DNA from: Promethearchaeota archaeon
GTDB lineage: Archaea > Asgardarchaeota > Lokiarchaeia > Sigyniarchaeales > SOKP01
Direction: 5' to 3'
Assembly: GCA_048938025.1 (NCBI GenBank)
Contig: JBHLMP010000006.1
Span: 23,316 to 87,315 of the forward strand
DNA: 64,000 nucleotides
Shown here: in pieces, positions 1,285 to 47,642 of the stretch
Layout of the letters: the number at the start of each line of letters is the position of its first letter
Position numbering within the stretch: position 1 is the first letter of the stretch
Translations under genes and position numbers: made by a program
Notes under the pieces: generated by a model
What the model was told of the DNA's origin: nothing
Database searches by the model: none
The model's input: only the letters and a program-made list of their open reading frames with translations

Positions 1285-3390
1285 TTATAGCCAAGGCGGA
1301 ATCTGCATAGGTGCATCCACAATCCATTCCGGATAGATATAACCATTTGATGTAACAATTGATTTTGTTCCACCAGATTGCCATTGTACCCATAAAGCGA
1401 CAGAATAAATTGTCTCTGTAATTGGATCATACCCTTCAATTAAATCATGGTATATATTAAATGCAATATTACCTCCAGCTCCTTCAAATGGATTAGTTTT
1501 ATCTATAGTTTCTAATTGAGCTACAATATCATCAGAATCAATGGATTGTACTTTGTTAATCGCGTCTGACAGCATAAAAACAGAATCATAGGATCCTATT
1601 GCTGTATAAAAAGGATCCTTAGCCCATATTGCTGTATATGAATCCCACATTGGTATTGTTATACTTGTTTTATTAGTTCTTGTTGTTGATTGTACTACTA
1701 ATTGATATTTACATGCTCCTGCTGAATATTGCCAGTAATCTTCAAATTCAGACATATAATCAATCCCAGCAATCATAAAATCGGGTTGAAGAGCCTCATA
1801 TTGAGTCATCAATTTGATTCCACCTTGTGCTGAGATGAGAGGAAAAACGATTTGTGCTCCATCAGTGTGTAATTGGTATACATATCCAGTAAAATCTGCA
1901 GAAGTAGCTGTAATTGGATACGCAATTTCACTTACTATTGTAAAATTAAACCAAGGATTAATAGTTAACCCATAGTATCCATAAGGTACATAATAACCGT
2001 GTAAAATGTTTGACCAAGGTGTCGTCCATTCAAGATTTTCCCTTATAATTCCAACTTTAGTCACGTTTACGCCTAATGCTGCCTCCAAGGCAGGTTTAAG
2101 CGTTAAAGCATAAAATTCAACAATTTCCTTCGCTAAAGATGTAGAATTGATAGGCATTGTACGGAAACAATATTTATATTTAGCATAATCCATGGCAACA
2201 GTTGTACAGAATGAATCTGTAGATGCTCCTGTATTTATGAAAATTTTATGCTCGTCCATTACCGCTTCCCGATATGTCATTACTGCTTCTGTTCTATATC
2301 CACCAATGAAAAAATCAGGATCATGTTGAAGGATCAGATTCTCTGCTGCTAAGACTCCCTGACTAACATTTAATAAGGGAATAGCTTCGTAGGTATTTTC
2401 ACCTACAATTCCAAGATAGTAAGTACCATTGGGAAAAGTCGGATCCATAGAATTATAAATTAAAATACCTCCAGCTTCGTTTATCTGTCTTATAGCTAAA
2501 TATGATCCTTGAAATGTACCTTCACCCGATATATCAGTAAAATCAGCAAGGGTTCCAATCTTAATTATATGATCTTCAGGAGTATCAATTGGTGCCCCTG
2601 GGACAAATAAAACACCCGAGTATAAATAAGGAATATCTATGTTTACAATTTCACTATTAGTAGTCTCCTCATTACCAGCGTTGTCTATAGCATAGTATTC
2701 GATGGTGTGATTTCTTTTAGCATAACCCCCTAATGTGAATAACCCAGTATATGATGTCCATGGTCCATTATCTATTCGGTATTCGATGCTATCAACCCCT
2801 GAACCAGTACCATCATCTGCCAATAAAGTGAAGGTCGTGCTATTACTAACTATATTGGGCAAAGATTCAGGAGTATAAGATATAGAACTAGATGGGTTCA
2901 TACTGTCGATGATCAATTGATAAGAGCTTACATAAGCAATATTATTTGTTTCATCAGACTCACTTACATCATTATCACTATCGATAATCCAACCTATATA
3001 AAATATTCCATCTGGGATTCCAATATCTGGAAATATACCACTCCATGTTGAAAAACTATAATTTAAAGAAGATATTGATGGGATTGTATCAACTCCTAAC
3101 AAATAATCATCTACCGTAATAATAGTATTAGTTGAAACGTAATAGCTTACATTAAAGGCACCTGTTGATGATTGCCCAAGATTCTCGACATAACACCATA
3201 CTTGAATTATAGTAAAGCCGGGTTTAACTGCCGTTGGAAAAAAATCAGAATAAAGTGGTCCTCTATCTGTCAAATCTGGTGGACTTTTTTTTCCTTTTGG
3301 CAAAAAACTTACCCAGGTGATCGCAATAGAACTCACACCAATAATAATGGCTATTAAAATGGCTATTATTGTTCTTTTTTGTATTTTCAT
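1285..3390 (-). CDS. Membrane-anchored extracellular solute-binding protein (type I periplasmic-binding fold, Liv-like) with N-terminal CARDB and Ig-like modules
   Basis: N-terminal TM anchor. CARDB hallmark ending ESDETNN. Ig-like module SGVDSIEYRIDNGPWTSYTG...YYAIDNAGNEE. C-terminal ~430 aa resemble branched-chain amino-acid binding proteins (IKIGTLADFTD...QINEAGGI). Confidence 0.6.
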   Translation of the reverse strand: MKIQKRTIIAILIAIIIGVSSIAITWVSFLPKGKKSPPDLTDRGPLYSDFFPTAVKPGFTIIQVWCYVENLGQSSTGAFNVSYYVSTNTIITVDDYLLGVDTIPSISSLNYSFSTWSGIFPDIGIPDGIFYIGWIIDSDNDVSESDETNNIAYVSSYQLIIDSMNPSSSISYTPESLPNIVSNSTTFTLLADDGTGSGVDSIEYRIDNGPWTSYTGLFTLGGYAKRNHTIEYYAIDNAGNEETTNSEIVNIDIPYLYSGVLFVPGAPIDTPEDHIIKIGTLADFTDISGEGTFQGSYLAIRQINEAGGILIYNSMDPTFPNGTYYLGIVGENTYEAIPLLNVSQGVLAAENLILQHDPDFFIGGYRTEAVMTYREAVMDEHKIFINTGASTDSFCTTVAMDYAKYKYCFRTMPINSTSLAKEIVEFYALTLKPALEAALGVNVTKVGIIRENLEWTTPWSNILHGYYVPYGYYGLTINPWFNFTIVSEIAYPITATSADFTGYVYQLHTDGAQIVFPLISAQGGIKLMTQYEALQPDFMIAGIDYMSEFEDYWQYSAGACKYQLVVQSTTRTNKTSITIPMWDSYTAIWAKDPFYTAIGSYDSVFMLSDAINKVQSIDSDDIVAQLETIDKTNPFEGAGGNIAFNIYHDLIEGYDPITETIYSVALWVQWQSGGTKSIVTSNGYIYPEWIVDAPMQIPPWL

Positions 3391-3559
3391 TTTAATATTC
3401 TCCTAATTGGATATTCATTATAAATATATCAATAATAGATTTAAAGTTTTCCTTAAATCATAAATTTTTAGGGGAACTTCTAAATATTTCCTTTCTTGGA
3501 GGTGTTATGATATCTATAGCAAGATAATCACAATATTACCATTCTCTTTTTGTAGTATC

Positions 3560-3821
3560 TTTACTGGTGGATGAGGAAATTAAAAGATTTGTAAAATATT
3601 TATTATAAAAAGGATCTTGTTTATATCCTGATTTTGAAGTAAGAAACTGTTATTAAAGTAAAACTATTGAATTATGCTTCCACTGCGATGAATTTCCTTG
3701 TGAAAAAACTAATTTTGATTCTGATCTTAAGAGAAGGTGGATTCAAATGAATAATCAGATGAAAGAAATAGATATTAAATCATGCTATCAGAAGTCTAAA
3801 GATTTATCAAGGTATAGGTAA
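3560..3821 (+). pseudogene. Decayed duplicate of the 3' part of the DUF3795 gene
   Basis: nt 3612-3821 align base-for-base with 1039-1248. The core gatgaatttccttgtga...aggtggattcaaatgaataatcagatgaaagaa is nearly identical. The copy has in-frame stops and no start. Confidence 0.8.
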
Positions 3822-4481: not shown

Positions 4482-5327
4482 ATGATCATTTGGATATTAG
4501 ATTCCGAATCTGGAACAAAATTATTATATAAATCATTTTTGAAAACGAGTGCCGATGAGGATATTGTTTCTGGTTTTTTAACAGCGTTTCATCATTTTTC
4601 TATGGTTGAATTTAAGCAATCATTAGAATCTATAGAAATGGGTGGATTAAGATGGAGTTATATATTAGAGCCAGAGTATCAATTACTTTTTGTGGCAGCA
4701 GACACCAAAAGTGTAAGAACTGAAATGCTAATGGGGAGATTAAATGTTATAAGAGAAGCATTCGTAAAGGAATTTAAATCCGCATGGGAAAAAAAAGGTC
4801 ACAGTTGGGATGGAAATATTAATATTTTTTTACCTTTTATTGATGTAATTGAGGATTATTATAATCAATGGGAAGAGGTTGAAACATTAACCCATGTTGC
4901 AGATTTTTTTGATATCTTGGGTGTTTTTCAACACATATTAATTTCAATTAGAAATATTATGGATCATAAAATGTATAGTAAGTCCAAAAATGAAATTTTA
5001 AATCTCATTGATAAATCGTATAATACTATTAAAAATCAAGCAAAATACAAAAATCATCCAGAATTGAAAAATATCTCCTATTCTAAAGAGGCTTGGTTTA
5101 ATATAATTGATATAAACCTTATTAAGGGTGAAAAAAAATTAGTTATGACGTATTTGAAATCAATTCTTAGACAAATTGTAACTATTTTAAAGGAAGTAAA
5201 AGGAGAGAATTTATGTTTAAGATATTTTAGCGAAGAACATATTTATGCTTACATTTATAATAATATGAAATTATTAAAAGATTTAAAACTAGATTTGTTT
5301 TTTTTGGAACTTTTTCTATTATTATAA
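4482..5327 (+). CDS. Longin/roadblock-like domain protein with helical C-terminal region
   Basis: The first ~100 aa (IIWILDSESGTKLLYKSF...IVSGFLTAFHHFSMVEF...LRWSYILEPEYQLLFVAAD) have a beta-beta-alpha-beta-beta-beta pattern. They resemble the cytosolic domains of the ORFs at 15169 and 17593. Confidence 0.5.
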   Translation: MIIWILDSESGTKLLYKSFLKTSADEDIVSGFLTAFHHFSMVEFKQSLESIEMGGLRWSYILEPEYQLLFVAADTKSVRTEMLMGRLNVIREAFVKEFKSAWEKKGHSWDGNINIFLPFIDVIEDYYNQWEEVETLTHVADFFDILGVFQHILISIRNIMDHKMYSKSKNEILNLIDKSYNTIKNQAKYKNHPELKNISYSKEAWFNIIDINLIKGEKKLVMTYLKSILRQIVTILKEVKGENLCLRYFSEEHIYAYIYNNMKLLKDLKLDLFFLELFLLL

Positions 5328-5569: not shown

Positions 5570-6139
5570 GTGAGAGTAGTGGAAATTATACCGAATTTTT
5601 CATTTGGGTTATTAAATGGATGGATTTATTTCGTATTCTATTTAATTGTTTTTATTTTAGTGTTGAGTACGTGTTCTAAAGAGGTAAAAAAGCGATTATA
5701 CGATAGATCTTTATGGGATAAAAAAATAAAAATAATTACAGCTATTGGGAAATTATTTTCATTTGCTAATATTATCATGATTTTCTTAGCAACTATACAA
5801 TTCGGTACAATAGAGTTTATTATTGGAACGGTATTATATTCGGTTGGTCTAATAGGTTTAGGAATCGCTATTATTAATTATCGAAATGCACCTTTAGATA
5901 AACCAATAACTATCGGATTATATAAAATATCTCGTAATCCACAAATGGTTATGATTTATATCATGTTTGCTGGAATGATTTTAATAATCGGTTCTTGGAT
6001 TAATCTGATTTTTTTATGTATTTCGATTATATGTGCTCATTTCAGTATACTAGGGGAAGAAAAAGCTTTAACTGAACAATATGGAGAATTATATGATAAT
6101 TATAAGACAAAAGTACCAAGATATTTTATGTTTTTTTAA
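5570..6139 (+). CDS. ICMT/PEMT-family integral membrane methyltransferase
   Basis: Multi-TM protein with the C-terminal signature GLYKISRNPQM...GEEKALTEQYGELYDNYKTKVPRY. GTG start. Confidence 0.7.
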   Translation: MRVVEIIPNFSFGLLNGWIYFVFYLIVFILVLSTCSKEVKKRLYDRSLWDKKIKIITAIGKLFSFANIIMIFLATIQFGTIEFIIGTVLYSVGLIGLGIAIINYRNAPLDKPITIGLYKISRNPQMVMIYIMFAGMILIIGSWINLIFLCISIICAHFSILGEEKALTEQYGELYDNYKTKVPRYFMFF

Positions 6140-6154
6140 AAGAATAAGAGCTAA

Positions 6155-6778
6155 TTGAAAATGATTAAACCAATTATTATTAAAATATTTATTATCACAG
6201 TTATTAGTTTCTTTCTTATAGGATTGTTTGTACCTATGGCTATAATAAAAAAAAAAGGCAAAGATCCTCATGGAACACATGAAGGAGCTTCATTACTGAC
6301 TAGATTAACGCCTTATACTATTTTTACTTGGTTAACATATATTATTTTATTTGTCATAGATGGTAAAACAATCTTAAATTTTTTAGTTTTTGAATTTGTA
6401 ATTTCAGACATTTTCATATTTATCGGTATAATTATGATATCTTTGGGTTTACTAATAGATTTATGGGGAACAATCGCACTAGGAACTAACTTTAGGATTG
6501 AACTTCCAAAAGAAGAAATCTCTCTAAATACTACTGGAATTTATAGGTTAATGAGAAATCCCATTGTTATGGGAGTTTATTTGCTTGTTACTGGAAGTTT
6601 TCTTATTATTCCGACAATAATTTCACTGATCTTCTTAATAGCAAACATTTTGACTTTTGATTCAAAAATAAGAGATGAGGAAAGATTCCTTGCTAAACGA
6701 TTTGGAGAAGAATATAAAAATTATTGCACAAAAGTAGGAAGATATCTTCCATTTAGTATAATAAAGAATAAAAGATAA
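6155..6778 (+). CDS. ICMT/PEMT-family integral membrane methyltransferase (paralog 2)
   Basis: GIYRLMRNPIVMG...RDEERFLAKRFGEEYKNYCTKVGRYLP signature. Multi-TM. Confidence 0.7.
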   Translation: MKMIKPIIIKIFIITVISFFLIGLFVPMAIIKKKGKDPHGTHEGASLLTRLTPYTIFTWLTYIILFVIDGKTILNFLVFEFVISDIFIFIGIIMISLGLLIDLWGTIALGTNFRIELPKEEISLNTTGIYRLMRNPIVMGVYLLVTGSFLIIPTIISLIFLIANILTFDSKIRDEERFLAKRFGEEYKNYCTKVGRYLPFSIIKNKR

Positions 6779-6938
6779 CATGTGTTGGTGATAAGATATC
6801 AGGGAATCAGCAAATTATGGAAATTGGGTACCATTAAATTTATTATACTTTTTAATAGGTGCAAATTTAATTTTATTAATCCCTTCCTTATTCCCAATTC
6901 CTCTAATCGTTAGAATAGTATTATGGGTAATTATAGGA

Positions 6939-7562
6939 TTGCTTCTTTTACCATCTTCTTATTTATTTTATTTATTTTATAAATTTTCAGTAAATAATAA
7001 AGAGTTACAATATATGGTCTGGAATTTAGTCATCAATAAATTATCTTGGAATGGACAAGGCAAAGCGCTTGATATTGGCACCGGAGCTGGAGCATTAGCA
7101 ATAGAGCTTGCTAAGAAATTCCCTGAATCTAAAGTTTGGGGAATTGATTATTGGGGAAAAATATGGAATTATTCTAAACTTAAGTGCGAGAGAAATGCTA
7201 AAGTCGAGGGTGTTGCAGATCAGGTTGTATTTCAAAAAGCGCATGCTTCAAAATTGCCTTTTAAAGATGGTGAATTTGATGTTATTATGAGTAATTTCGT
7301 ATATCATGAAATTCGAGATGCAAAAGATAAAACCAAACTCATTAATGAGTCTTTTCGAGTTTTGAAAAAAGGAGGGGCCTTTTCTTTGCAAGATATCTTT
7401 AAAAGTAAAAAGAAATTTGGTGATATTGAACAATTAATCAGAGAGATTAAGAAATGGGGCATTGAGGAGGTTAATTTCATCGAAACAACTCAAGAAATTC
7501 CAATACCTAAGTTGTTGAAATTTGAACTCAAAACAATGGGTTTATTATATGGAGTAAAGTAG
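6939..7562 (+). CDS. Class I SAM-dependent methyltransferase
   Basis: Motif I LDIGTGAGALA, acidic loop GIDYW, post-I VIMSNFVYHE. The start is uncertain: TTG at 6939 or ATG at 7014, and the frame is open from 6795. Confidence 0.75.
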   Translation: MLLLPSSYLFYLFYKFSVNNKELQYMVWNLVINKLSWNGQGKALDIGTGAGALAIELAKKFPESKVWGIDYWGKIWNYSKLKCERNAKVEGVADQVVFQKAHASKLPFKDGEFDVIMSNFVYHEIRDAKDKTKLINESFRVLKKGGAFSLQDIFKSKKKFGDIEQLIREIKKWGIEEVNFIETTQEIPIPKLLKFELKTMGLLYGVK

Positions 7563-7569
7563 ACTTAAA

Positions 7570-8217
7570 ATGGGCTTAAAGCAAAAATTAGTTAATCAAA
7601 TAAGAAAACCTAGTGGAAAAGTAGGACGAATAATTGCCAGGGGTATGAATAAAGGGCATGCAAAATTAGCAAAGTGGGGTTTATCTAAAATTGTTATAGA
7701 ACCAAATTATATTATTTTAGATATTGGATGTGGGGGTGGGGGAAATATAAAGCGTTTTGCTGAGATTATAGTAGATGGAAAAATATATGGAATTGATTAT
7801 TCAGAAACAGCCGTATCGGTAAGTAAGGAAGTTAATAAGAGATATCTTGAAAATGGAACTGTTGAAATATACAATGCTTCTGTTTCATCTTTACCTTTTG
7901 AAGATAATTTCTTTGATATCATAAGTGGTTTTGAAGCTTATTACTTTTGGCCAGATTTACCAACAGATTTAAAAGAAATCTATAGAGTTCTTAAACCAAA
8001 AGGAAAAATAATTTTAGTTAATGAAGGGTATTTATGTAATAATGAGAAAAAAAGAAAAAAAGCTCAAATGTGGTCAGAATTGGGGAAATTTCCTCTTCAT
8101 ACTCCTGAAGAATATAATGATTTATTAACTAATGCTGGTTTTTCTAATATCCAAATTTTTGAAGAAAATAAAAAGGGTTGGATTACAATTATAGGTAAAA
8201 AAATTCGCGTTATATGA
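7570..8217 (+). CDS. Class I SAM-dependent methyltransferase
   Basis: Motif I LDIGCGGGGN, GIDYSE, LKPKGKIIL. Confidence 0.75.
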   Translation: MGLKQKLVNQIRKPSGKVGRIIARGMNKGHAKLAKWGLSKIVIEPNYIILDIGCGGGGNIKRFAEIIVDGKIYGIDYSETAVSVSKEVNKRYLENGTVEIYNASVSSLPFEDNFFDIISGFEAYYFWPDLPTDLKEIYRVLKPKGKIILVNEGYLCNNEKKRKKAQMWSELGKFPLHTPEEYNDLLTNAGFSNIQIFEENKKGWITIIGKKIRVI

Positions 8218-8320
8218 GTATGAAGATGTTATAAAAAAATATGAAAATATGGACTATACAAATATTAAATACAATTGAAAAAATTGAATTAATAAGATTT
8301 TAAAAAATAGCTGATTTAAA

Positions 8321-8818
8321 ATGAATAAAAAACGACATGAGGGTCATGAGAGGGAAATTCCAAATGCCCATATATTTCATGCCATATTACCAATAGGATT
8401 TGCAGCAATATGGATACTAGATTCAAGAATATTCCAATTCTCAACTTTTTTAAACAATTTTGTACCTTTTATAATTCGTTTAATACTCTTTGTATTAGTT
8501 TTTGCGATTGCTATTACTTTTATAATACTGTCTCACCGTGCCCTATTTAAATCACATCACCCACCTAGTAGCTTGATTACTAATGGAATTCTTGGATATG
8601 TGAGAAATCCAATGTATTTTGGCATTTTATTAATTTATGTGGCATTAATATTCTTTTCCATTTCATTAATTTGTATTGGTCTCTTTGTTATAGTATTTCT
8701 GGTTTATAATTGGATGGTAAATTTTGAAGAAAAAATTCTTCTGGATATGTTTAGTAATCAATTTTTAGAATATAAAAAAAAAGTACCAAAATGGATTCCA
8801 AATCCCTTTAAAAAGTAA
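8321..8818 (+). CDS. ICMT/PEMT-family integral membrane methyltransferase (paralog 3)
   Basis: GILGYVRNPMYFG...NFEEKILLDMFSNQFLEYKKKVPKWIP signature. Multi-TM. Confidence 0.7.
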   Translation: MNKKRHEGHEREIPNAHIFHAILPIGFAAIWILDSRIFQFSTFLNNFVPFIIRLILFVLVFAIAITFIILSHRALFKSHHPPSSLITNGILGYVRNPMYFGILLIYVALIFFSISLICIGLFVIVFLVYNWMVNFEEKILLDMFSNQFLEYKKKVPKWIPNPFKK

Positions 8819-8837
8819 AAAGAAAGGACCCGTAGTA

Positions 8838-9236
8838 ATGGTTTCTGAGCAAATATGGAAAAAAATATGGTTGATATTTGGGATTATTTTTTTATTTATT
8901 TCAATTTTTATGTTATTTTTTGGCTCCTCACTAGCTTCAATAACAAGAACCAGACCGTTCTCAGATCGCGCTAGAGCTATGATAAGTTTCTTCTGGATTT
9001 GGATGTTTATATATAATGGAATAGGATTCATTTTACTTTATAAAAATACTGAAAAGTATAAAATTTTATTAATTTTAGCGATTCCTGCGGGAATAATCTT
9101 TACAATTCTTCAAATAATCTATATCATAATAGGGCTTTTTGAATTTGTATTCTCAGAAATTATGTGGGCGGTAAGTTCCTTAATATGGTCAATAATAGCA
9201 ATAGTATATTTTTTTGATAAAAAAAGGCATGCGTAA
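8838..9236 (+). CDS. Hypothetical membrane protein (about 4 TM)
   Basis: 132-aa hydrophobic ORF, co-directional and tightly spaced in the + strand gene array. No recognisable motif. Confidence 0.5.
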   Translation: MVSEQIWKKIWLIFGIIFLFISIFMLFFGSSLASITRTRPFSDRARAMISFFWIWMFIYNGIGFILLYKNTEKYKILLILAIPAGIIFTILQIIYIIIGLFEFVFSEIMWAVSSLIWSIIAIVYFFDKKRHA

Positions 9237-9272
9237 TGCATTTAATTAGTTGAAATTGTGAATTAGAATAAC

Positions 9273-9986
9273 ATGAAGAATATGCATAAATTTGTAAAAG
9301 TAGGATTTACAAACTGCTATCTATTAGAATGTAATTCTGGATATCTACTGATCGATACTGGATATCCACATCATTATGAGAAATTTGTATCCAAACTAAA
9401 AAGAAAGTATAATATTCATATAACTGAAATAAGATATTTGCTTTTAACTCATCATCATGATGATCATGCTGGATTTGCAGCAGAATTACTGAAAAACTCT
9501 AAAGCAAAATTGTTACTCCATGAAAAAGCTCTGAAAAGATTAGAATTAGGAACCACTGAAGAAGAAGGCAAACCAGTTAATTTTAGACTTAAAATTGTTC
9601 TTAAAATATTTAGTATATTTCACGAGTTTTCCTATCCTCCTATTATCACTTCTAAAAATCACATAATTTTAAAAGACTTTGAAGTCAATAAGGATCTTCT
9701 AAGAAATATTGGAATAGATGGAACTATTCTTTATACACCTGGACACACCAAAGATGGAATTTCAGTAATCTTAAAAGATGGTTCCGTCTTTCCAGGAGAT
9801 AATACTATGAATTCATGGTATTTTAATATATTTGGAATAAAAAAAAGACCTATTTATATCCAAGATATCGGGTTAATTTTCAATAGTTGGAAGAGATATA
9901 TCGAATTTGGTGGAAAATTTGTATATCCAGCACATGGTAAACCTTTTGACATTAAATATCTAATAAAATATCTTAAAGAAAACTAG
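9273..9986 (+). CDS. MBL-fold metallo-hydrolase
   Basis: HxHxDH motif (LLTHHHDDHAG) and downstream TPGHT histidine. Confidence 0.8.
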   Translation: MKNMHKFVKVGFTNCYLLECNSGYLLIDTGYPHHYEKFVSKLKRKYNIHITEIRYLLLTHHHDDHAGFAAELLKNSKAKLLLHEKALKRLELGTTEEEGKPVNFRLKIVLKIFSIFHEFSYPPIITSKNHIILKDFEVNKDLLRNIGIDGTILYTPGHTKDGISVILKDGSVFPGDNTMNSWYFNIFGIKKRPIYIQDIGLIFNSWKRYIEFGGKFVYPAHGKPFDIKYLIKYLKEN

Positions 9987-10089
9987 GTTTTATTTTTGGA
10001 TTTTAGCAAAACCTTATTACAAAAGAATACATACAATTCTTAATTGTTGCATTTTTAGCAAATGTACACAATTGTTTTAGGTTTTATCA

Positions 10090-10350
10090 ATGGCAAAAGC
10101 AAAAGGAACAGTAAAATGGTTTAATAGTAAAAAAGGCTATGGCTTTATTACTCCTGATGATGGTTCGAGTGATTTATTTGTTCACTATTCCACTATTCAA
10201 GCCGAAAGTGGCGATTTTAAGATAATTTATGAAGGGGATATAGTAGAATATGAAGTCACTCAAGGACAGAAAGGGCCACAAGCCAGCAATGTCGTAGTTA
10301 TTGAAAAAGGACCTCGACAGAGTTTTCATGGCCGGAAATCTTTTTATTAA
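10090..10350 (+). CDS. csp: Cold-shock domain protein (CspA family) with short basic C-terminal tail
   Basis: [15 protein letters not shown] (RNP1) and DLFVHY (RNP2). Confidence 0.9.
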
Positions 10351-10475
10351 TAAAATAGTTTATTAATTAAGAAAGAGAATAGGTAATAAAAATAAGGAAT
10401 TTTGGAAGATAGTAAATATGTGAGGAAAGATTTGTTAATTTCTTTTTAATATTTCTCTACGTCTGACAGGTTCCC

Positions 10476-10495
10476 TTTTTTTTTTTTATTTTTTT
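10476..10495 (+). terminator. T12-A-T7 tract downstream of csp
   Basis: Read directly. Lies ~125 nt after the csp stop, so the assignment to csp is tentative. Confidence 0.3.
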
Positions 10496-10567
10496 AACGC
10501 TCTAAATTGAAGCTAAGTAATAAAATTATTAAGAATAGTAGTGATTTATAATTAAAAATCATGATTT

Positions 10568-11242
10568 TTGTATAAAATGAGCCAGTTGAATGAGAATAAG
10601 ACATGGACGAGAGAACGAGTTGAAAGATATATCCAATCAACGGAGAAATTAATTAATTATAGATATAAACCATTTGCCAAGCAAGTACTGGATTCTATAA
10701 ATGAGTTTGGTATAGAAGGGATTCCAAAAATTTTAGATATTGGATGTGGGCCAGGCATTCTCTTATTTGAAATTAAGAAAATTATTCCTGACGTAAAGTT
10801 AGTTGGGGTTGATTCCTCAGAACAAATGTTAAATTTTGCCAAAGAGAAAGCAGAACACAATAATATTGATGAGCTTGAACTATTGAAAGGTTTGGCTGAA
10901 GATATTCCATTACCAAATGATGATATAGAGGTGGTTGTATGCCTAAATTGTCTTCATGATTTTAAGGATGCGAAACAGACAATAGAACAAGTATACCGAG
11001 TATTGCGGAGTGGAGGGATTTTTATTTTGAAAGATAAAAATGGTGCTTATCCTCGATGGAAAATGCGTTTACATTTTATTCCATTAATTCTTAGGACAGG
11101 TTTAAAGAGAGCTCGGGCTTATTTAAGAAGCGAGCCATTTTGGCTTGAACCGCATCAAGTATATGATTGGATGAGCCAATTAGGGTTTCAAGAGATTAGT
11201 GTTTCAAATAAACCTGATTATGTTATTATAGGAAAAAAATGA
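10568..11242 (+). CDS. Class I SAM-dependent methyltransferase
   Basis: Motif I LDIGCGPGIL, GVDSSEQM, LRSGGIFIL. The ATG at 10577 is a more likely start than the TTG at 10568. Confidence 0.75.
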   Translation: MYKMSQLNENKTWTRERVERYIQSTEKLINYRYKPFAKQVLDSINEFGIEGIPKILDIGCGPGILLFEIKKIIPDVKLVGVDSSEQMLNFAKEKAEHNNIDELELLKGLAEDIPLPNDDIEVVVCLNCLHDFKDAKQTIEQVYRVLRSGGIFILKDKNGAYPRWKMRLHFIPLILRTGLKRARAYLRSEPFWLEPHQVYDWMSQLGFQEISVSNKPDYVIIGKK

Positions 11243-12991: not shown

Positions 12992-14242
12992 TTATCGCCA
13001 TTCAGTACCACAATGACCGCATTTATATTTATGACCATAAACTCGTGGATATGCAAATATTATATGAGTTTTATCAATTATTTCCCGAATGAGATCTTTG
13101 TTAGCATTTCCACATTTAGGACATCTACGCCTTCCCTCAGAACTTCCCTCTAAAATTATTTGTCCTTCTTTTTCTAGTTCAGGAGAGATGATTGATTTCA
13201 ATTCTTCTACCAAAGAATAAGAAGAAATAGCCTGTTCTGTTTCCTCAACATTTAGCTCTTGGGTATCTATTGTAATCTTTTCTTCCATCTTTAATGCAGG
13301 TTCCATTAATTGTTCAGTCTCAACTTTTAAAGGTTTTTGAGAGGGGACCTTAAGTTCTTCATGAGGTTGAGGAATTGCTACTTCCACTACTTTTTTACCT
13401 TTTTCTTTAAACCTTTTATTTTCATCCTCGAGAGCGACTACTTGTTCTTGTAAAATAGCGATTTCTTTTTCTAATTGTGCAATATCCGGTTTTTGCATCT
13501 TTAAAAAGTCAATGTTATTTCTTAATAAATTGGTTTCGTTTACCAATTCATGGATTTTTTCATTTTTATTAAGAATTAAATTTTCTAATCTATTAACTTC
13601 TTCCATCAAGTTTGCTATAGTATTACGAGTACTCTCAATGAACTCAACATCAGGTTTTTCTTTCTCTTTGAGTATCCTATTATTATCCTCTAATTCAGCA
13701 ATCATTGCTTCTAAATCTATAACTTCTTCCTCTAATTGTGCAATTGTAGCCAACTCAGTTTTTAAATCTCGGATATTATTTTTTAACACTCTATTTTCAT
13801 GTTCTAATTCAGAAGCTTGATTTTTTAATGGTTCAAGATTTTTCTCTAATCTATGGTACTCTTCTGTTAAATTTTCGATTTTTTTAGTATACTCTTTTAA
13901 AATCAGGGGATCCACTGTTTCACCTAAATTTTCTTTTTGTTTCGAAAATTCAAGATTTAAATTTTCAATTTTTTTTTGTAAAATTTCACTTTCATAATCT
14001 TTCTGAGCTAACTCTTTTCGCTGTGAAGAAACCATATTTTTTAAAATTGTAATTTCTTCTGATTCATTTAAACTATCGGCGGTAACTTTGCCACTTAATA
14101 AGGTTCGTGAATTCTGTTCTTCTAATTGAGCATTTAACCTATTAATCTCATTATTCAATTTTTCTATAATCTTTTCCAATTCTGCTCTGTTCCTTTCTTC
14201 TTCTTCAGCTTTATCAATTAAATCCTTTAAATTTTCGCTCAT
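12992..14242 (-). CDS. Long coiled-coil protein with C-terminal CxxC...CxxC zinc ribbon
   Basis: About 290 aa of heptad-rich E/K/L/N sequence with an internal ~52-aa duplication. C-terminus CPKCGN...CGHCG. Confidence 0.6.
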   Translation of the reverse strand: MSENLKDLIDKAEEEERNRAELEKIIEKLNNEINRLNAQLEEQNSRTLLSGKVTADSLNESEEITILKNMVSSQRKELAQKDYESEILQKKIENLNLEFSKQKENLGETVDPLILKEYTKKIENLTEEYHRLEKNLEPLKNQASELEHENRVLKNNIRDLKTELATIAQLEEEVIDLEAMIAELEDNNRILKEKEKPDVEFIESTRNTIANLMEEVNRLENLILNKNEKIHELVNETNLLRNNIDFLKMQKPDIAQLEKEIAILQEQVVALEDENKRFKEKGKKVVEVAIPQPHEELKVPSQKPLKVETEQLMEPALKMEEKITIDTQELNVEETEQAISSYSLVEELKSIISPELEKEGQIILEGSSEGRRRCPKCGNANKDLIREIIDKTHIIFAYPRVYGHKYKCGHCGTEWR

Positions 14243-14517: not shown

Positions 14518-15105
14518 ATGGAAGATGTAAGTGATGAAATTTTCTGGAAAAATATAATTAAACAGTATTGGAAAATATTCGTCATTTGTATAATCGCAGT
14601 AATCGTATGTGCTATAGGAGTACTTCTAGTCCTTGTTTGGTTTATAGAAACCTCTACTCTTGGGGGGCAAGGTGAATGGACTTTTAATCAGTGGACATTA
14701 AATTATGTTGTTGGCTTTATGATTTTGATAATTCTTTGGGAGTTATTACTTGTAGGAGTTCCAGCAGCCCTATTTTTTGGTGTAGGGGGATATCTATGGT
14801 GGAAGAAATTACCTGATGAAGAAAAACAAGTATTCAAAGGAAGAGAAAAGAGGGAAAAGAAAAAATACAAACATTCAAAAAACTGGGGTGGCGGTGGAGG
14901 ATTTAATATATTTATGTTTATAGCCTACTGTATCGTTATCGCGATTGATGGAAACTATAATACTAGATTTGGACAATTAGATTACAGCTATTTCATTTAT
15001 GCTTGGTTTTTTACTATTATGTGGCTTTTGATAATTTTTGGCATTCCTGTGGTTATTATACTTTTGATTGTTTATTTTAAAGTATGGAGAAAAAAATTAG
15101 AGTAA
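14518..15105 (+). CDS. Hypothetical 4-TM membrane protein with basic loop and Gly5 tract
   Basis: Hydrophobic segments flank KGREKREKKKYKHSKNWGGGGG. A T-run follows the stop. Confidence 0.5.
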   Translation: MEDVSDEIFWKNIIKQYWKIFVICIIAVIVCAIGVLLVLVWFIETSTLGGQGEWTFNQWTLNYVVGFMILIILWELLLVGVPAALFFGVGGYLWWKKLPDEEKQVFKGREKREKKKYKHSKNWGGGGGFNIFMFIAYCIVIAIDGNYNTRFGQLDYSYFIYAWFFTIMWLLIIFGIPVVIILLIVYFKVWRKKLE

Positions 15106-15168: not shown

Positions 15169-17445
15169 TTATTCTTTAGGTTGAAAGACTTTTTTCTTTA
15201 TCAAATTAAGGATTGTTTCAGCCTCTTTTGCATCAAAACCCTTTCTTATTGATAATAGACTAGTAACAGTAAAATAATCCTTGTTTTGCTTTTTCATAAT
15301 CACTTTAGCTCGACTTGCCATGGATTTTTCATCCGACTTAAGTTTAATATCTCGTTTAATTATTTCTAATGGATATATTAAAGCTGTTTGTAAATGTTGT
15401 TCAAGTAATTCACCGATTCCTTTAAGTGGTGTTATATTTCCATTAAAGCTTTCAATTATATTACCATATCTTTTATTAATATCATAAGATAAAGCTCTAA
15501 TTGATTCTAAAAAGTCATGTGAAGGATTTTCTTTCATAATAAGCAAAATTCTAAAAGTCTTAAATTCTGACATTAAGATTTTTGAATCGTGATATTCCAA
15601 TTTTATTGTCTGAGATTGTTCACTAGCTCCAGTTAATTCAATACCAAAGCTACGAATTGCTTCAAGAAATCCAGCAATTAATGAAGCATCAATAGATTTA
15701 CCAGCATAAATCTGCTCGTATATATTTAACCCAGATTTCTTATGTGTAATAATCAAATAATCTAAATTTAAAACATCCATATATTTATTAAAAATACTCT
15801 GTCTGTATACCTCATGTTTTCTCTTAGAGATTTTAACAAGTTTATATGTGGTAAAACTAGCAATAGATAAAATTGCTACAGCAGATACTATTATAACAAT
15901 TAGCATCGGATCTAAGACAAAAGGAATACTTACTTTAAATTCTTGAGTAATAACACCTGCATCCGTAGCATTATTCCAGAAAATGTAAGCCTTATAAATC
16001 CCTTCATTAGGACTAGATGGAAGTTGATAACTCAGTATGAGATCTTCTGTTCCGATTGAATCTATTATATAAACTTCATCTGGCTGAGCGGGATAACCTA
16101 ATGAATTAATTAACCTAAAAGTAATATTTCCTGGAGGAATTGGAGACAGAACAGAAAATTGTATTTCTTGACCTGCTCCAAACTTTGTTTTTTGTACATT
16201 TAAAGGAAGTTGTATATTTGGAGAATTTGCTGTTATTCTCCAGTCCGATCCCTCTATTATTGTATTATTCTGAAGAAATATAAAGTGATTTATTGGATCT
16301 TTTATAACATCTATGGTAATATTTTCCCATCCAAAACCTATATCTCTATATATAGTTAAATTATACCAATTGTTTGGATATATAAATTTAATAGAATAGT
16401 TACTATAACATCTATCAAACTGTTGAGTCATTATCCAAGTATTTTTCAAATTCTCTTTAATTAATAATTCCCACTCCGTATCAAGAATATTTTGAAGTTT
16501 TATATGATAACTTAAATTGAATAATAACTCAGAGACTCGATTATTTACTATTGGTATATTATATATTTCAGATAAAGGAGAAATATCTTTACTGATATTT
16601 AATTGACCTGTTTCAGGTTCTGTTCCATTTAAGATGGGATAATAAATACCATCAATAATTGCACTCATATTAATTTCCTCTGGATCAAAAGATTTATCTA
16701 CTCTTTGAATTAATTTATATAATAAAGGTTCTCCCTTAGCTTCCCAGTTCCATTTTGCTCCGTCATGTTTTGCTGTATTCAAATTAGCATTAATAGATCC
16801 ACTATCATTGTAATACCAATTATATGCTGTTCTATCACCAGGAATATTCATTTCAGTTCCATTCATTACCAAATAATATTGACCACTTGAAAGTGATATT
16901 GGATTTTCGAAAGTTTGGATATACCAATCAAAATTATTAGTCATATTTATTGGTACCGTTCCATAAATATTATCATCTGGTATGTTTTCTGCACCATTAT
17001 ATCCTTGTATTTGTATATATGCTGGAATTGATGGATCTTCACCACTACGAACTCCATATATATATACTCCAAAAATATCTGTAGGTACGGTAATATTAAT
17101 TTGCACACCATATCCATATTCACCCTTAAAACCGACTGTTTTGGTTTCATCTCCCTCTTCTTCAATTGTTATAATTTCTTTTCCTAACTTTATATCAGTA
17201 AAATTAAGCTCCATATTTGTAATGTTCCAAGTTGCTGATGGTAAAGGAATATTTATTGAACTTATGTCTATACTTATATTTATATTATCTGAATATTCAA
17301 TCATAGGGACGTTTGAATTTATCTCAAGTGATTCATCATTATTTTGAGCATTAACAAAATTGGTGATATAAATTAAACTTACTAAGAAAAGAGTTATGAT
17401 TGTGAATCCTATTATATAAGATCTTGATTTATATACCTCTTTCAA
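15169..17445 (-). CDS. Single-pass membrane protein: sequon-rich ectodomain, TM helix, cytosolic longin/roadblock-like plus winged-helix-like tail (paralog A)
   Basis: N-terminal signal/anchor, about 490-aa ectodomain with many NxS/T sequons, and TM helix LDPMLIVIIVSAVAILSIASF. The 224-aa cytosolic tail (nt 15172-15843) contains LDYLIITHKKSGLNIYEQ...LIAGFLEAIRSFGIEL...IKLEYHDSKILMSEF. Confidence 0.6.
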   Translation of the reverse strand: MKEVYKSRSYIIGFTIITLFLVSLIYITNFVNAQNNDESLEINSNVPMIEYSDNINISIDISSINIPLPSATWNITNMELNFTDIKLGKEIITIEEEGDETKTVGFKGEYGYGVQINITVPTDIFGVYIYGVRSGEDPSIPAYIQIQGYNGAENIPDDNIYGTVPINMTNNFDWYIQTFENPISLSSGQYYLVMNGTEMNIPGDRTAYNWYYNDSGSINANLNTAKHDGAKWNWEAKGEPLLYKLIQRVDKSFDPEEINMSAIIDGIYYPILNGTEPETGQLNISKDISPLSEIYNIPIVNNRVSELLFNLSYHIKLQNILDTEWELLIKENLKNTWIMTQQFDRCYSNYSIKFIYPNNWYNLTIYRDIGFGWENITIDVIKDPINHFIFLQNNTIIEGSDWRITANSPNIQLPLNVQKTKFGAGQEIQFSVLSPIPPGNITFRLINSLGYPAQPDEVYIIDSIGTEDLILSYQLPSSPNEGIYKAYIFWNNATDAGVITQEFKVSIPFVLDPMLIVIIVSAVAILSIASFTTYKLVKISKRKHEVYRQSIFNKYMDVLNLDYLIITHKKSGLNIYEQIYAGKSIDASLIAGFLEAIRSFGIELTGASEQSQTIKLEYHDSKILMSEFKTFRILLIMKENPSHDFLESIRALSYDINKRYGNIIESFNGNITPLKGIGELLEQHLQTALIYPLEIIKRDIKLKSDEKSMASRAKVIMKKQNKDYFTVTSLLSIRKGFDAKEAETILNLIKKKVFQPKE

Positions 17446-17592
17446 ATATAAACCCCCGAAATATTAAAATCAAACTAAAATGCTTAAGAATATAGTCTCA
17501 ATTAGTCTATTTAAATTTTGATTTTATTGCTTATAGGATTCATAAATAATAATTAATAAGTATTCAAAATTAAAGATTTGAAGAATTTAAGA

Positions 17593-19905
17593 TTAAACAG
17601 CAACTTGAAAAATATTTTTCTCTATTAATTTAAGAATTATTTCAATATCTTTAGGGCTGCAAGTTGTTTCAGATATTAAATCTTTAATATGAAAAAAATC
17701 TGTACCCTTTTTTTTCATAATTGATATTGCATCATCAATAAAATATTTCTCATTAGGGCTAATTCGAATTTTCTCTAATTTATCTCCATTAACAAATTTT
17801 AGAGGATATACAATTGATACATTAAGATGTTTTACAAGTAAATCTTCTATAGTTTTAAATTTTCTAACATCTCCATCAAATTGATCAATTAAATTCCCAT
17901 AATTCTTATAGATATCATAAGCTAAATCTTCAAGTGAATAGAGTAAAAATTCTGATGGACTTTCTTTTAATATGAGAATTAATCTAATATTTACAAATTC
18001 GCTCATTAATACAATTGAATTTCTATATTCTAATTTTATGGTCTGAGATTGATTTTCAACTTTCATTAATTCAATTCCAAATGAAGAAAGGGCTTGTAAA
18101 AACCCGGAAATTAAAGTACCATTTAAATCTTTACTTGTAAAACTTTGTTCATAAACACTTAATCCAGATCTCTTATTTGTCACAATAAGATAATCAAGGT
18201 TCATAATATCCATACATTTACTGAATTTTTTATGCTCTTCCTCAATCTTACTAGCTCGAATCTTTTTAATTGTTCGATAAGATATTAATCCCCCAACAAT
18301 CCCTACTATTCCTAGTATAACACCAGTAACAATCCATATTGGATCTATAGTAAAGGGGATCGGAGGTTTAGCTACTTGAAAGTCTTGAGACTGAACACCT
18401 GCATCTGTGTTATTATTCCAATAAATTAAAATATAATATGAGCCTTCACGTGAATTTGATGGAATTGTATAAGAAAATAACTGTTCTGTAGAACTAATTT
18501 CTCTTGTTTCTATTGGTTCTTCATAACCAAAACCTAATGAATTGATAAAAAAGAATGTTAGATTACCTTCGGGTGCTGGTGCAGAAACAGTAAATTGTAA
18601 TTCTTGTCCTGGTTCCCAATCCAAGACAGGAAGGTTTAAGTCAAAAATTATATCTGGCGAATTTGCAGTGATTCTCCATTCAGCACCACCAAGTATAATA
18701 CTATTAGGAATGAGAATTGTATTTGTATTATTATCTATAATGGTACTAGATGTAAGGTTATCCCATGATAATCCTAATTTTCGAGATATTGTAAAGTTAT
18801 ACCAACTATCTGGATAATTAAACTTTACATAATAGTTAGAACCTACACTATTTAAAAGCGGAAATAGTGACCAACGATTATTAGATTCTTCAACAATTGC
18901 AGAGGCTTTAGTTGAAAAGTTATTGTTTAGAGTAATTGAAAAATTATAATCATAATTTAATATCAGAGACTGATTAATCATGATGGGAATATTTAAATCA
19001 ATCTCCTCAGAAAAGTGAGTTAAATCGGATAAATTTAAGAACCCATCCCCTATAGTTAATCCATCAGTTATTTCATAATTATCTCCATTAAATTGAGCAG
19101 TCATATTTAATTCTGAAGGAAAATATAGTTGATTTGGATCAGAAATTTTCAATTTGCATAAGAAACTTGAATTTACTGTACCAATAGCCCAAGAAGTTAT
19201 ATAAGAGGAAGAATGCAAGAAAGGAATCTCAGGATCTAAATCATCTTTCTGCCAAAAATACTTTGCTTGATCATCTATAGGTAACCCAGTTCCGTTCATT
19301 ACTAATGAATAATTTCCAATCGGTAATGTAATAGGATTTGTAATAAAATCTTGATAATACCAATCTAAATCAGTAGATATATTTAAATTGATAGATCTAT
19401 AAATTATACCATTAGGTATGGAATTAATTTCGTTAAATCCTTGAAGTTGGAATTTAATTGTCTCGTTTGCCTGTGGGGTTTTATATGCTTTGATGTACAC
19501 ACCTAGTAAATCGGTTTCCTCCAAAATTTCAATTTGAGTCGCTAGAGCAAAGGTTCGAAAATTAACATTTTTATTCCATACTTGCCCCAATGCAGTTTCA
19601 CTTTCTTCAATAACTCTAACATCACTTCCTAAACTTATGTCAGAAAAATTAATTTGTATATTTGAAATTGTCCAATTTGGTTCTGGTAAATCGATTTGAA
19701 TTGAACTAACATTCTCTTTCAATCCTTCAATTTGACAATATTCATAAAATCCAAATTTAGATGAAATTGTAAAAGGTTCACCATTAGTTTGAGCATTTGA
19801 AAATCCTATGAAATTATTTAAAAATAAAAGAAAAAAGAATAGAACTAATATGATTCCTAAAACAGTTTTCGATTTAGATATACTTAGTCCCATAAAATTG
19901 ATCAA
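17593..19905 (-). CDS. Single-pass membrane protein, paralog B of 15169-17445
   Basis: Same architecture as paralog A. Shared blocks WRITANSP, FINSLGF and LDYLIVTNKRSGLSVYEQ...LISGFLQALSSFGIEL...IKLEYRNSIVLMSEF. Alternative start at 19893. Confidence 0.6.
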   Translation of the reverse strand: MINFMGLSISKSKTVLGIILVLFFFLLFLNNFIGFSNAQTNGEPFTISSKFGFYEYCQIEGLKENVSSIQIDLPEPNWTISNIQINFSDISLGSDVRVIEESETALGQVWNKNVNFRTFALATQIEILEETDLLGVYIKAYKTPQANETIKFQLQGFNEINSIPNGIIYRSINLNISTDLDWYYQDFITNPITLPIGNYSLVMNGTGLPIDDQAKYFWQKDDLDPEIPFLHSSSYITSWAIGTVNSSFLCKLKISDPNQLYFPSELNMTAQFNGDNYEITDGLTIGDGFLNLSDLTHFSEEIDLNIPIMINQSLILNYDYNFSITLNNNFSTKASAIVEESNNRWSLFPLLNSVGSNYYVKFNYPDSWYNFTISRKLGLSWDNLTSSTIIDNNTNTILIPNSIILGGAEWRITANSPDIIFDLNLPVLDWEPGQELQFTVSAPAPEGNLTFFFINSLGFGYEEPIETREISSTEQLFSYTIPSNSREGSYYILIYWNNNTDAGVQSQDFQVAKPPIPFTIDPIWIVTGVILGIVGIVGGLISYRTIKKIRASKIEEEHKKFSKCMDIMNLDYLIVTNKRSGLSVYEQSFTSKDLNGTLISGFLQALSSFGIELMKVENQSQTIKLEYRNSIVLMSEFVNIRLILILKESPSEFLLYSLEDLAYDIYKNYGNLIDQFDGDVRKFKTIEDLLVKHLNVSIVYPLKFVNGDKLEKIRISPNEKYFIDDAISIMKKKGTDFFHIKDLISETTCSPKDIEIILKLIEKNIFQVAV

Positions 19906-46858: not shown

Positions 46859-46920
46859 AGTGTAAAAATTCTCAACAATTGTCTAAACCATTCAATAGGT
46901 TTAAATTTATGAACATGACT

Positions 46921-47517: not shown

Positions 47518-47642
47518 AGCTTTTCCCTATTTAAGTATTTCATTAAGATTATTAGGAATTTATATAATAGAAATTTAAGTGTCTAGATATTTAAATTTAA
47601 TGTTAAAGTTAGTTGAAATCTAAAATTCAAATATTAGGATTA

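Follow-up and report, generated by a model that had tools for sequence, protein, structure and literature searches.

Dimers of roadblock and longin domains serve as platforms for small GTPases (PMC10933270). Here, we describe two adjacent genes of a Promethearchaeota archaeon, referred to as gene A and gene B, which lie on the minus strand between positions 15169 and 19905 of a 64,000-nucleotide stretch of contig JBHLMP010000006.1 (assembly GCA_048938025.1, positions 23,316 to 87,315 of the forward strand); the whole stretch is called the window hereafter. Both products are predicted to combine a signal peptide, a large ectodomain rich in N-x-S/T sequons, a single transmembrane helix and a C-terminal cytosolic tail with a longin/roadblock-type fold. 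The interpretation that we favor, tentatively and at somewhat less than an even chance, is that A and B form a membrane-anchored longin platform which recruits cytosolic longin and/or Rag/Arf-like GTPase partners.

Among the described systems, Ragulator (LAMTOR1-5) with its Rag GTPases, or EGO in yeast, uses membrane-held roadblock/longin dimers to dock Rag GTPases, which themselves have no lipid anchor. Rag C-terminal domains and LAMTOR are found among the fold matches of the Asgard tail, and in sister operons of the family, Gtr1/RagA-like GTPases are paired with small longins. Ragulator itself, however, is anchored by the lipidation of LAMTOR1, has no ectodomain and shows no detectable sequence relation to the Asgard family, and the GTPases of the Asgard operons are short (183-188 aa, amino acids) and do not carry the fused C-terminal roadblock domain of the Rags. 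In the SR-alpha SRX/SR-beta system, the longin-fold SRX (PDB 1nrj, rank 23 in our Foldseek comparison) binds an Arf-like GTPase at the membrane, and the Asgard operon GTPases match the Pfam family SRPRB (E ~1e-11). There, in contrast to the Asgard proteins, the GTPase SR-beta holds the anchor and the longin is soluble, a polarity that is reversed in the Asgard case, and the Asgard proteins have no SRX Pfam match. Longin SNAREs (Sec22b, VAMP7, Ykt6) and phytolongins likewise have a longin domain on a membrane-anchored protein, but they are tail-anchored type-IV proteins with an N-terminal longin, a SNARE motif (which phytolongins lack) and virtually no lumenal part. The Asgard order, unlike theirs, runs from a signal peptide through a 475-aa ectodomain and a transmembrane helix to a C-terminal longin, with no SNARE heptad region.

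In prokaryotes, the closest design, consisting of a membrane sensor, a roadblock protein along with a small Ras-like GTPase, is that of the actinobacterial conservons (CvnA-D) and of MglA-MglB (PMC13343842, PMC13621833, PMC4316618). Conservons differ in possessing a histidine-kinase-like sensor, a separate soluble roadblock protein and a fixed four-gene operon that includes a DUF742 protein, whereas the Asgard longin is fused to the membrane protein and its GTPase linkage is limited to some subfamilies; no kinase or DUF742 domain was found in the A/B proteins or their neighbors. Soluble Asgard Roadblock/longin proteins share both phylum and fold class with A and B. Asgard genomes hold ~130 Roadblock/longin asCOGs, in which domains have been shuffled extensively; NPRL2-like longins are joined to signaling domains in some of them (Liu et al.), and fusions of a GTPase with a longin/roadblock domain occur as well (Tran et al. 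2024). The descriptions examined, however, mention no transmembrane glycoprotein with such a domain, and the Pfam longin/roadblock models miss the A/B family. In the literature examined, the asCOG tables and the '41 longin-like' Loki proteins of Klinger et al. 2016 set aside, no protein combines a signal peptide, a glycosylated ectodomain, a transmembrane helix and a C-terminal longin. What may be new is the architecture, together with an unannotated Asgard-specific family; the longin fold and the logic of a membrane-tethered platform are known, and an earlier listing of such proteins as generic 'longin-like' is possible.

The pair and its predicted parts are arranged as follows.
Gene A: 15169..17445, minus strand, open reading frame (ORF) of 758 aa, 'downstream-type' transmembrane longin glycoprotein (predicted).
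Gene A, putative signal peptide: 17347..17445, minus strand, aa 1-33, ending VNA↓Q, hydrophobic segment aa 7-34.
Gene A, ectodomain: 15910..17346, minus strand, aa 34-512, all-beta tandem beta-sandwich domains in the AlphaFold2 model, 17 N-x-S/T sequons.
Gene A, predicted transmembrane helix: 15841..15909, minus strand, aa ~513-535, Kyte-Doolittle hydropathy maximum 2.62.
Gene A, basic juxtamembrane helix: 15772..15840, minus strand, aa 536-558, unbroken with the transmembrane helix and leading straight into strand b1 in the AlphaFold2 model.
Gene A, predicted longin/roadblock-fold core: 15376..15771, minus strand, aa 559-690, from AlphaFold2/DSSP and Foldseek.
Gene A, small C-terminal alpha/beta module: 15172..15375, minus strand, aa 691-758, possibly winged-helix-like, from DSSP.
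Gene B: 17593..19905, minus strand, 770 aa, 'upstream-type' paralog with the same architecture as gene A.
Gene B, predicted parts: signal peptide aa 1-38 (SNA↓Q), ectodomain aa 39-521, transmembrane helix aa ~522-543, tail aa 544-770.
Gene B, predicted longin/roadblock-fold core: 17809..18204, minus strand, aa ~568-699.

A first-pass annotation, made from the sequence alone, had described two neighboring minus-strand ORFs of 758 and 770 aa with one architecture, and the coordinates, the lengths and the full-length alignment all agree with this. Genes A and B can be regarded as true paralogs, since 40% identity holds over their whole length (pairwise alignment, E=4e-159). Their C-terminal tails are both ~225 aa long, and the core of gene B is 56% identical to that of gene A and scores 174 bits against a hidden Markov model (HMM) of the longin core. 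The motifs quoted in that annotation recur in both proteins, namely the ectodomain blocks WRITANSP and [LF]INSLG[YF] and the tail motif LDYLI[IV]T.K.SGL..YEQ...LI[AS]GFL.A..SFGIEL...QTIKLEY...LMSEF. The gene A product is a 100% match to ACFFAQ_03055 (P0050), a 'hypothetical protein' from a contig of 95 kb in an NCBI metagenome-assembled genome (MAG) labeled Promethearchaeota archaeon. The G+C content is ~29% throughout the window, and antisense ORFs inside the two genes (16982-17347 and 18542-18817, both on the plus strand) were treated as spurious.

Sequence features and models together predict that A and B are type-I single-pass membrane glycoproteins with a cytosolic C-terminus. Each has exactly two hydrophobic segments, an N-terminal one and then the transmembrane helix, which, with the site VNA↓Q or SNA↓Q, bears out the N-terminal signal or anchor and the single membrane crossing originally assigned to both proteins. 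The residues at the putative signal-peptidase site, A33 and Q34, are at least 90% conserved among 107 homologs, and the N-terminus of the gene A model forms a helix over residues 2-27, followed by low confidence at aa 28-35. The tail is placed in the cytosol because of the positive-inside rule and the asymmetry of the sequons. A K/R-rich stretch directly follows the transmembrane helix in both A and B, and over the 107 homologs the 16 positions that follow the helix hold a mean of 6.1 K+R residues, as against 0.5 for the 16 that precede it. The gene A ectodomain has 17 sequons as against 6.4+-2.2 in composition-matched shuffles, and that of gene B has 18 as against 8.2+-2.5, whereas the tails hold one (A) and three (B), near the shuffled expectation, so that enrichment is restricted to the region between the two hydrophobic segments. 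The same holds across the homologs, with 3.82 sequons per 100 aa in the ectodomain (shuffled, 1.57) and 0.41 in the tail (shuffled, 0.62), and with a higher density in the ectodomain than in the tail in 107/107. N81 is a sequon in all 107; for N440, N195 and N259 too the count is at least 102, and at 10 positions a sequon is kept in >75% of members. Thus the cytosolic placement proposed at the outset is upheld, as is the sequon richness of the ectodomain, the length of which comes to ~475 aa instead of the ~490 aa then given.

The AlphaFold2 model of the tail, built on a 48-sequence alignment, has a predicted local distance difference test (pLDDT) score of 88.4 and a predicted template-modeling (pTM) score of 0.82. 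Its elements follow the order juxtamembrane helix, b-b-a-b-b-b-a-a and small helix/strand module, in accordance with the beta-beta-alpha-beta-beta-beta-alpha pattern that had been read from the sequence. In the gene A core these are b1 (561-568), b2 (574-579), a1 (587-599), b3 (613-618), b4 (621-627), b5 (631-637), a2 (643-665) and a3 (677-690), an E-E-H-E-E-E-H-H order in DSSP that fits the longin layout of a five-stranded antiparallel sheet between helices. The helix preceding b1, which may be compared with the N-terminal helix that packs on the sheet in the a-b-b-a-b-b-b topology of roadblock domains, is the continuation of the transmembrane helix (H513-559). This helix is unbroken to residue 559 in the full-length gene A model and b1 starts at 561, and therefore the longin domain is predicted to lie close to the membrane and to be rigidly coupled with it.

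Comparison of the tail with the PDB by Foldseek gave 1193 matches at E<=10, of which the best 50 were listed; every one of these 50 structures contains a longin or roadblock domain, the E-values range from 7e-5 to 5e-3, and the probability is mostly 1.00. The longins among them include the sigma subunits of AP-1/2/3/4/5, zeta-COP, sedlin, Tca17, Sec22b, VAMP7, Ykt6, SRX, Fuzzy/Inturned and DENND10, and the probability reaches 1.00 for Sec22b, VAMP7, sedlin, the AP sigma subunits, zeta-COP and SRX. Roadblock structures, the RagA/C C-terminal domains and LAMTOR, are placed below the longins within the best 50. The best per-target template-modeling scores (TM-scores) among the matches listed are those of Sec22b (TMt 0.68) and SYBL1 (0.65). 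Sequence models were silent in comparison. Neither Pfam nor NCBIfam yielded a significant match when the two full proteins and their tails were scanned; Sec3_CC and PB1-F2, at E>0.003, were set aside as noise arising from coiled coils or composition. The tail-alignment profile had no match at E<=10 among all PDB sequences, and among 48 homologs of the tail, compared with Pfam at E<=5, no weak family recurred. At that threshold, the Longin, Sybindin, Sedlin_N, Clat_adaptor_s and SRX models matched neither A, B nor any of the 48 homologs, and Robl_LC7 (PF03259) matched one of the 48 (E=0.11; 12.7 bits, with the cut-off at 23). The one connection to curated longin models is indirect, by way of a small protein that aligns with the tail at an hhalign probability of 75% and has Sybindin and Longin matches below threshold. 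A longin/roadblock-type fold of the tail, as first suggested, is nevertheless supported by the confident model together with its Foldseek matches.

Longins have structural kinship with the PAS/GAF group (PMC4917890), and the tail might instead be a cytosolic small-molecule sensor, in which a PAS/GAF-like pocket senses a metabolite and alters the ectodomain by inside-out signaling. The rigid passage of the transmembrane helix into the domain would suit such a device. We give it very little chance, however, as the best 50 of the 1193 fold matches include no PAS/GAF structure, and neither a cofactor-binding motif nor an output domain is present.

Another enzymatic or regulatory role is suggested by the combination of a longin with a small C-terminal domain, which recalls NPRL2/3. 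The tail would then be a catalytic longin of the GTPase-activating protein (GAP) type, similar to FLCN, NPRL2 or SMCR8, whose arginine finger stimulates hydrolysis by a Rag/Arf-like GTPase. NPRL2-like longins have been reported in Loki and Thor by Liu et al., GATOR1 and FLCN complex entries occur among the Foldseek matches listed, Rag-like GTPases are present in sister operons, and R632 is nearly invariant (280/295 members). This arginine, however, is located in strand b5. GAP-type longins (FLCN, NPRL2, SMCR8, C9orf72) are marked by a Gly-Pro motif just before b2 (PMC12290439), which occurs in 0/287 members of the family; the conserved Gly is followed by L, I or V, and the residues at this position are GL (209), GI (25), GV (22) and SL (18). 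The Pfam models NPR2, NPR3 and Folliculin match neither A, B nor the 48 tail homologs. Judged on its residues by the published Gly-Pro criterion, the tail is not a GAP-type longin, and we regard catalytic GAP activity as very improbable.

The small C-terminal module has DSSP elements E693-695, H704-719, a bridge at 725, H727-730, H739-750 and E754-756 in gene A, and its modeled helix-strand-helix-helix-strand order is compatible with a winged helix. This order, along with the lysine-rich composition of the module, would accommodate a membrane-tethered transcription regulator or a regulated-proteolysis sensor, ToxR/CadC-like with reversed polarity, which binds DNA through the winged helix and uses the longin for dimerization or for a ligand. 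Soluble relatives of the core with winged helices also exist, namely P0309, which has an HTH_NPRL3 neighbor, and P0308, which has a PCI-like domain in front. NPRL3- and PCI-type winged helices bind proteins rather than DNA, however, and mean pairwise identity is lower in the module than in the core (0.51 as against 0.66). Pfam and PDB sequence searches of the module gave no match; no helix-turn-helix (HTH) or winged HTH (wHTH) model was found at E<=5 save in single members at E>0.03, where the matches, to the MCM2 or APAF-1 winged helix, are weak (E 0.04-0.14 only). Membership in the NPRL2/3-like group was rejected as well, the alignment of the tail module with an HTH_NPRL3-positive Asgard protein reaching an hhalign probability of 0.1 only. 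A DNA-binding role is, in our view, quite improbable.

On the outer side of the membrane, the full-length gene A model has a pLDDT of 83.7 overall and >90 over most of aa 40-510, and its ectodomain consists of beta strands only, arranged in several tandem sandwich domains. Foldseek searches of the ectodomain against PDB and BFVD returned generic multi-beta-sandwich arrays only, with TM-scores <0.2, comprising phage baseplate and tail proteins, complement MG domains, enzymes bearing carbohydrate-binding modules (CBMs), adhesins and an archaeal S-layer fragment. Pfam scans of seven relatives with longer ectodomains found Big_13 and Big_3_5 only, both below threshold. These matches point to an exposed surface scaffold and to nothing more specific.

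These observations lead to the main rival of the platform interpretation, namely that A and B are structural or adhesive glycoproteins of the unordered Lokiarchaeia coat, in which the longin only anchors or sorts the protein, by way of the cytoskeleton, ESCRT/adaptor-like factors or another longin, with no GTPase involved. The restriction of the ectodomain matches to adhesin, S-layer, CBM and phage-tail beta-sandwich arrays speaks for it, as do the heavy sequon decoration with its 10 conserved positions, the absence of a GTPase near most loci, and the fact that the SNARE and adaptor sigma longins, which are the top fold matches, act without GTPase regulation. 'Ca. L. ossiferum' has a single membrane, many surface proteins and no ordered S-layer (PMC9834061). 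We consider this rival somewhat unlikely, and the evidence that argues against it comes from the pattern of conservation within the family and from the gene arrays of some subfamilies.

The family to which A and B belong is, judging from the available genomes, large, unannotated and present only in Asgard archaea. A search with the ectodomain found >229 proteins, nearly all of which come from Asgard MAGs, are 745-785 aa long, lack a Pfam domain and are named hypothetical, and an exhaustive search with the tail profile found 1249 cluster representatives at E<=1e-3, 162 of them at E<=1e-30. The 77 loci in species-representative genomes carry essentially only Promethearchaeota and allied Asgard labels. 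One member (L065, DATKTW010000014.1, 3985 bp) is binned as 'Candidatus Nanopelagicaceae bacterium' and is most likely a mis-binned Asgard contig. The tail also occurs at the extreme C-terminus of proteins 900-1765 aa long. A transmembrane helix precedes it in 250/251 proteins with enough sequence, with a median of 24 residues from the end of that helix to the tail and a median of 1 residue after the tail, so the longin core behaves as an apparently portable module ~24 residues past the transmembrane helix and behind very different outer regions.

Conservation within the family is highest inside the cell. Mean pairwise identity is 0.66 for the longin core (aa 559-666), 0.51 for the C-terminal module and 0.47 for the ectodomain. 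Since the outside is variable and the inside is constrained and reused, the key interaction is expected to be cytosolic. The cytosolic core, rather than the ectodomain, is best conserved and recurs behind outer regions that are unrelated; this indicates a specific role in the cytosol and counts against a purely structural or adhesive surface glycoprotein.

The duplication that gave rise to the pair is also a family feature. Tandem copies of two or three genes occur in 33/80 loci, nearly all head-to-tail and with gaps of 90-290 bp, and the two genomes closest to the window, which itself has two copies, contain three family genes in a row (L004 and L005, 54-6675). Tandem partners share ~38% identity, whereas downstream copies among species share ~52% and upstream copies ~50%. 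Upon clustering, gene A groups with 27 downstream copies in a 31-member 'DN' lineage and gene B with 13 upstream copies in a 23-member 'UP' lineage, the two lineages being separate clades. Copies are therefore closer across species than within a pair, which indicates an old duplication whose two lineages have been kept side by side. Because longins and roadblocks normally act as homo- or heterodimers (PMC10933270) and the A and B genes are co-kept head-to-tail in many species, the A and B tails most likely heterodimerize.

Soluble relatives of the core were found as well. A homolog search with a divergent longin-core profile retrieved three proteins only, under a word-index limit, including the soluble P0308 and P0309. 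P0309 is a standalone 139-aa soluble homolog of the tail core. The next gene on its strand encodes a 148-aa protein with tandem winged helices, which matches HTH_NPRL3 above the Pfam threshold (32.1 bits, E=1.1e-7), and the two (L081 6001-7032, and L082) may be the halves of a split 'longin + NPRL3-type wHTH' pair on an Asgard contig. In P0308, a 237-aa soluble NCBI metagenome protein, the longin core is fused behind a PCI-like winged helix (E=3.6e-5) at the N-terminus, which gives the domain a further setting away from the membrane.

The link to small GTPases is the part of the interpretation for which the evidence is most divided. The relay of a surface signal to small GTPases had been suggested from the sequence alone, with the three GTPases of the window as possible partners, and for this pair the link to those three is not supported: they lie 22-31 kb away, among unrelated genes. 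A survey of neighbors across the family, which had been recommended alongside, found 5 GTPase ORFs in 829 kb of flanks around 80 species-level loci. GTPases make up ~2% of Lokiarchaeum genes (109/5381; PMC4917890), and the 5 ORFs are not above this background, so GTPases are not enriched near the family as a whole. In some sister loci, on the other hand, co-occurrence is evident, since small longins and some Rag/Arf-like GTPases are part of the gene array.

Instructive cases are L041 and L035, positional orthologs of the window locus, where the same FMN (flavin mononucleotide) reductase lies upstream and the same coiled-coil zinc-ribbon gene downstream. Behind the family gene of L041 come, on its strand and with short gaps, a 183-aa Gtr1/RagA-Arf-like GTPase, a 147-aa protein, a second such GTPase of 188 aa and a 143-aa protein, a GTPase/longin cassette that is inserted between the family gene and the coiled-coil zinc-ribbon gene. 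The 147-aa and 143-aa proteins have sub-threshold matches to Sybindin and Longin, respectively. The operon GTPases match Gtr1_RagA at E=1e-19 to 1e-22, and their sequences show neither an MG start nor a C-terminal CaaX motif. The small longins align in register with the tail core (hhalign probability 75% and 29%), the HMM matches are reciprocal, and the a1 motif L[IL]S.FL.A..S is common to both. In a metagenome scan seeded with the small-longin family alone, the small longin lay downstream of a transmembrane longin gene and on the same strand in 14/14 loci with upstream sequence; 12 of these are directly adjacent, with gaps of 24-104 bp, and in the other two (L083, L084) a Rag/Arf-like GTPase separates the two genes and a further one follows. 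A small longin also follows the family gene on the same strand in L050, L066, L035 and L041. Rag/Arf-like GTPases are interleaved in L041, L035, L083 and L084, and pairs of a GTPase and a small longin occur on the short contigs L086 and L087. The presence of such GTPases within the gene array of some subfamilies is the second point that disfavors a surface glycoprotein with a merely anchoring longin. L080 provides a third, independent GTPase adjacency: 194 bp downstream of a divergent family member lies the gene for a 311-aa protein (2668-3603, plus strand), whose Ras-like domain is C-terminal and whose N-terminal extension measures ~135 aa.

Considering these data, the platform interpretation may be outlined as follows. 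A signal peptide would place a heavily N-glycosylatable stalk of tandem beta-sandwich domains outside the cell, and a single helix would cross the membrane and continue as a basic juxtamembrane helix into the cytosolic longin/roadblock-fold domain and the small alpha/beta module. The A and B tails would pair into a membrane-anchored heterodimeric platform, which would recruit small soluble longins of a like kind, Rag/Arf-like small GTPases or both, in an arrangement like that of Ragulator tethering the Rag GTPases or SRX holding SR-beta. A more far-reaching version, which we judge unlikely, is that a heterodimer, of A with B or of a tail with a small soluble longin, docks unlipidated Rag/Arf-like GTPases at the plasma membrane and couples their state to contacts of the ectodomain outside, be it with a partner cell, a surface or a polymer, and would thus represent a pre-eukaryotic system for receptor-to-GTPase signaling and for membrane identity.

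Several points weigh against the platform interpretation. Longin folds also act in GTPase-independent roles, such as SNARE regulation and adaptor cores, and they belong to the wider PAS/GAF-like group (PMC4917890). No longin or roadblock sequence model recognizes the tail, the single Robl_LC7 match (1/48, E=0.11) included. The pair has neither a GTPase nor a small longin in cis; 22 kb separate it from the closest GTPase gene, and in the 80 species-level loci, with their 5 GTPase ORFs in 829 kb, a GTPase is directly downstream in 3/80. The operon-linked members cluster in subfamilies apart from the A and B lineages, and therefore the evidence from them reaches the window genes only by family-level homology. 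According to Tran et al., however, the GTPase genes of Asgard archaea as a rule do not share operons with genes for roadblock or longin proteins (PMC10933270), and for this reason the missing linkage is weak evidence against GTPase coupling.

The window contains further genes, some of which are related to the pair by homology or by position.
Soluble relative: 4482..5327, plus strand, 281 aa, N-terminal longin core at aa 5-134 followed by a ~150-aa helical region.
Same-strand downstream neighbor: 12992..14242, minus strand, 416-aa coiled-coil protein with a C-terminal CxxC...CxxC zinc ribbon.
Convergent neighbor: 14518..15105, plus strand, 195-aa multi-pass membrane protein with a basic Gly-rich loop.
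Rag/Arf-like GTPase: 41997-43205, plus strand, 402-aa Gtr1/RagA-Arf-like protein with N- and C-terminal extensions.
Ras-like GTPase: 46319-46858, plus strand.
Arf-like GTPase: 47643-48698, minus strand, with a ~165-aa N-terminal extension.

The protein of 4482-5327, encoded 10 kb from the pair, matches the longin-core HMM at E=2e-11 and the small-longin HMM at E=5.7e-6; a Pfam scan of it is blank, it has no hydrophobic segment, and its position is kept in L001 and L005. It is a candidate for a soluble partner of the A/B tails. The genes that immediately flank the pair encode an AlkZ-like glycosylase and an FMN reductase, along with the small membrane protein and the coiled-coil zinc-ribbon protein. 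Homologs of the convergent membrane protein of 14518-15105, which has no significant Pfam match, lie directly downstream on the opposite strand in 38/81 loci, with a median gap of 59 bp, and form the most conserved neighbor of the family; homologs of the 12992-14242 protein occupy a same-strand downstream position in 26 loci, one of which is L041. Both proteins are tied to the family by synteny only.

Of the three GTPase genes, that of 41997-43205 adjoins a divergent gene for a VWA and RING-finger protein (40583-41785, minus strand). A V4R-like protein (46921-47517, minus strand; Pfam V4R below threshold, 25.0 bits against a cut-off of 31) is encoded between the Ras-like and Arf-like GTPases; V4R is related to TRAPPC3/Bet3. 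The region 46319-48698 looks like a classical Asgard GTPase-regulator cluster that is positionally unrelated to the gene pair. A separate cluster at 5570-11242, syntenic in L001, comprises three PEMT/ICMT-like membrane methyltransferases (5570-6139, 6155-6778 and 8321-8818) and three S-adenosylmethionine methyltransferases. Two of the three PEMT/ICMT-like proteins match isoprenylcysteine carboxyl methyltransferase, which deserves mention in a lineage said to lack CAAX prenylation.

Asgard archaea encode ~100 GTPases of the Ras superfamily and dozens of longin/roadblock proteins, and, to our knowledge, nobody knows where in the cell they act. Lokiarchaeum has neither prenyltransferases nor CAAX motifs (PMC4917890, Table 1), and the Asgard proteins that have been tested did not target membranes (PMC10933270). 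A longin platform fixed ~25 residues below the membrane would offer unprenylated GTPases a route to membranes, and a GTPase-docking heterodimer, if true, would be a direct answer to the targeting of Asgard GTPases without prenylation. The defined tails, together with small longins and GTPases from single operons, make tractable candidates. Members of the family are also candidates for some of the surface densities on Lokiarchaeia that await explanation. If the link to GTPases fails, the tail would still represent a new use of the longin fold, as the cytosolic domain of a surface glycoprotein; if it holds, the family may show how Asgard archaea attach GTPase switches to the membrane.

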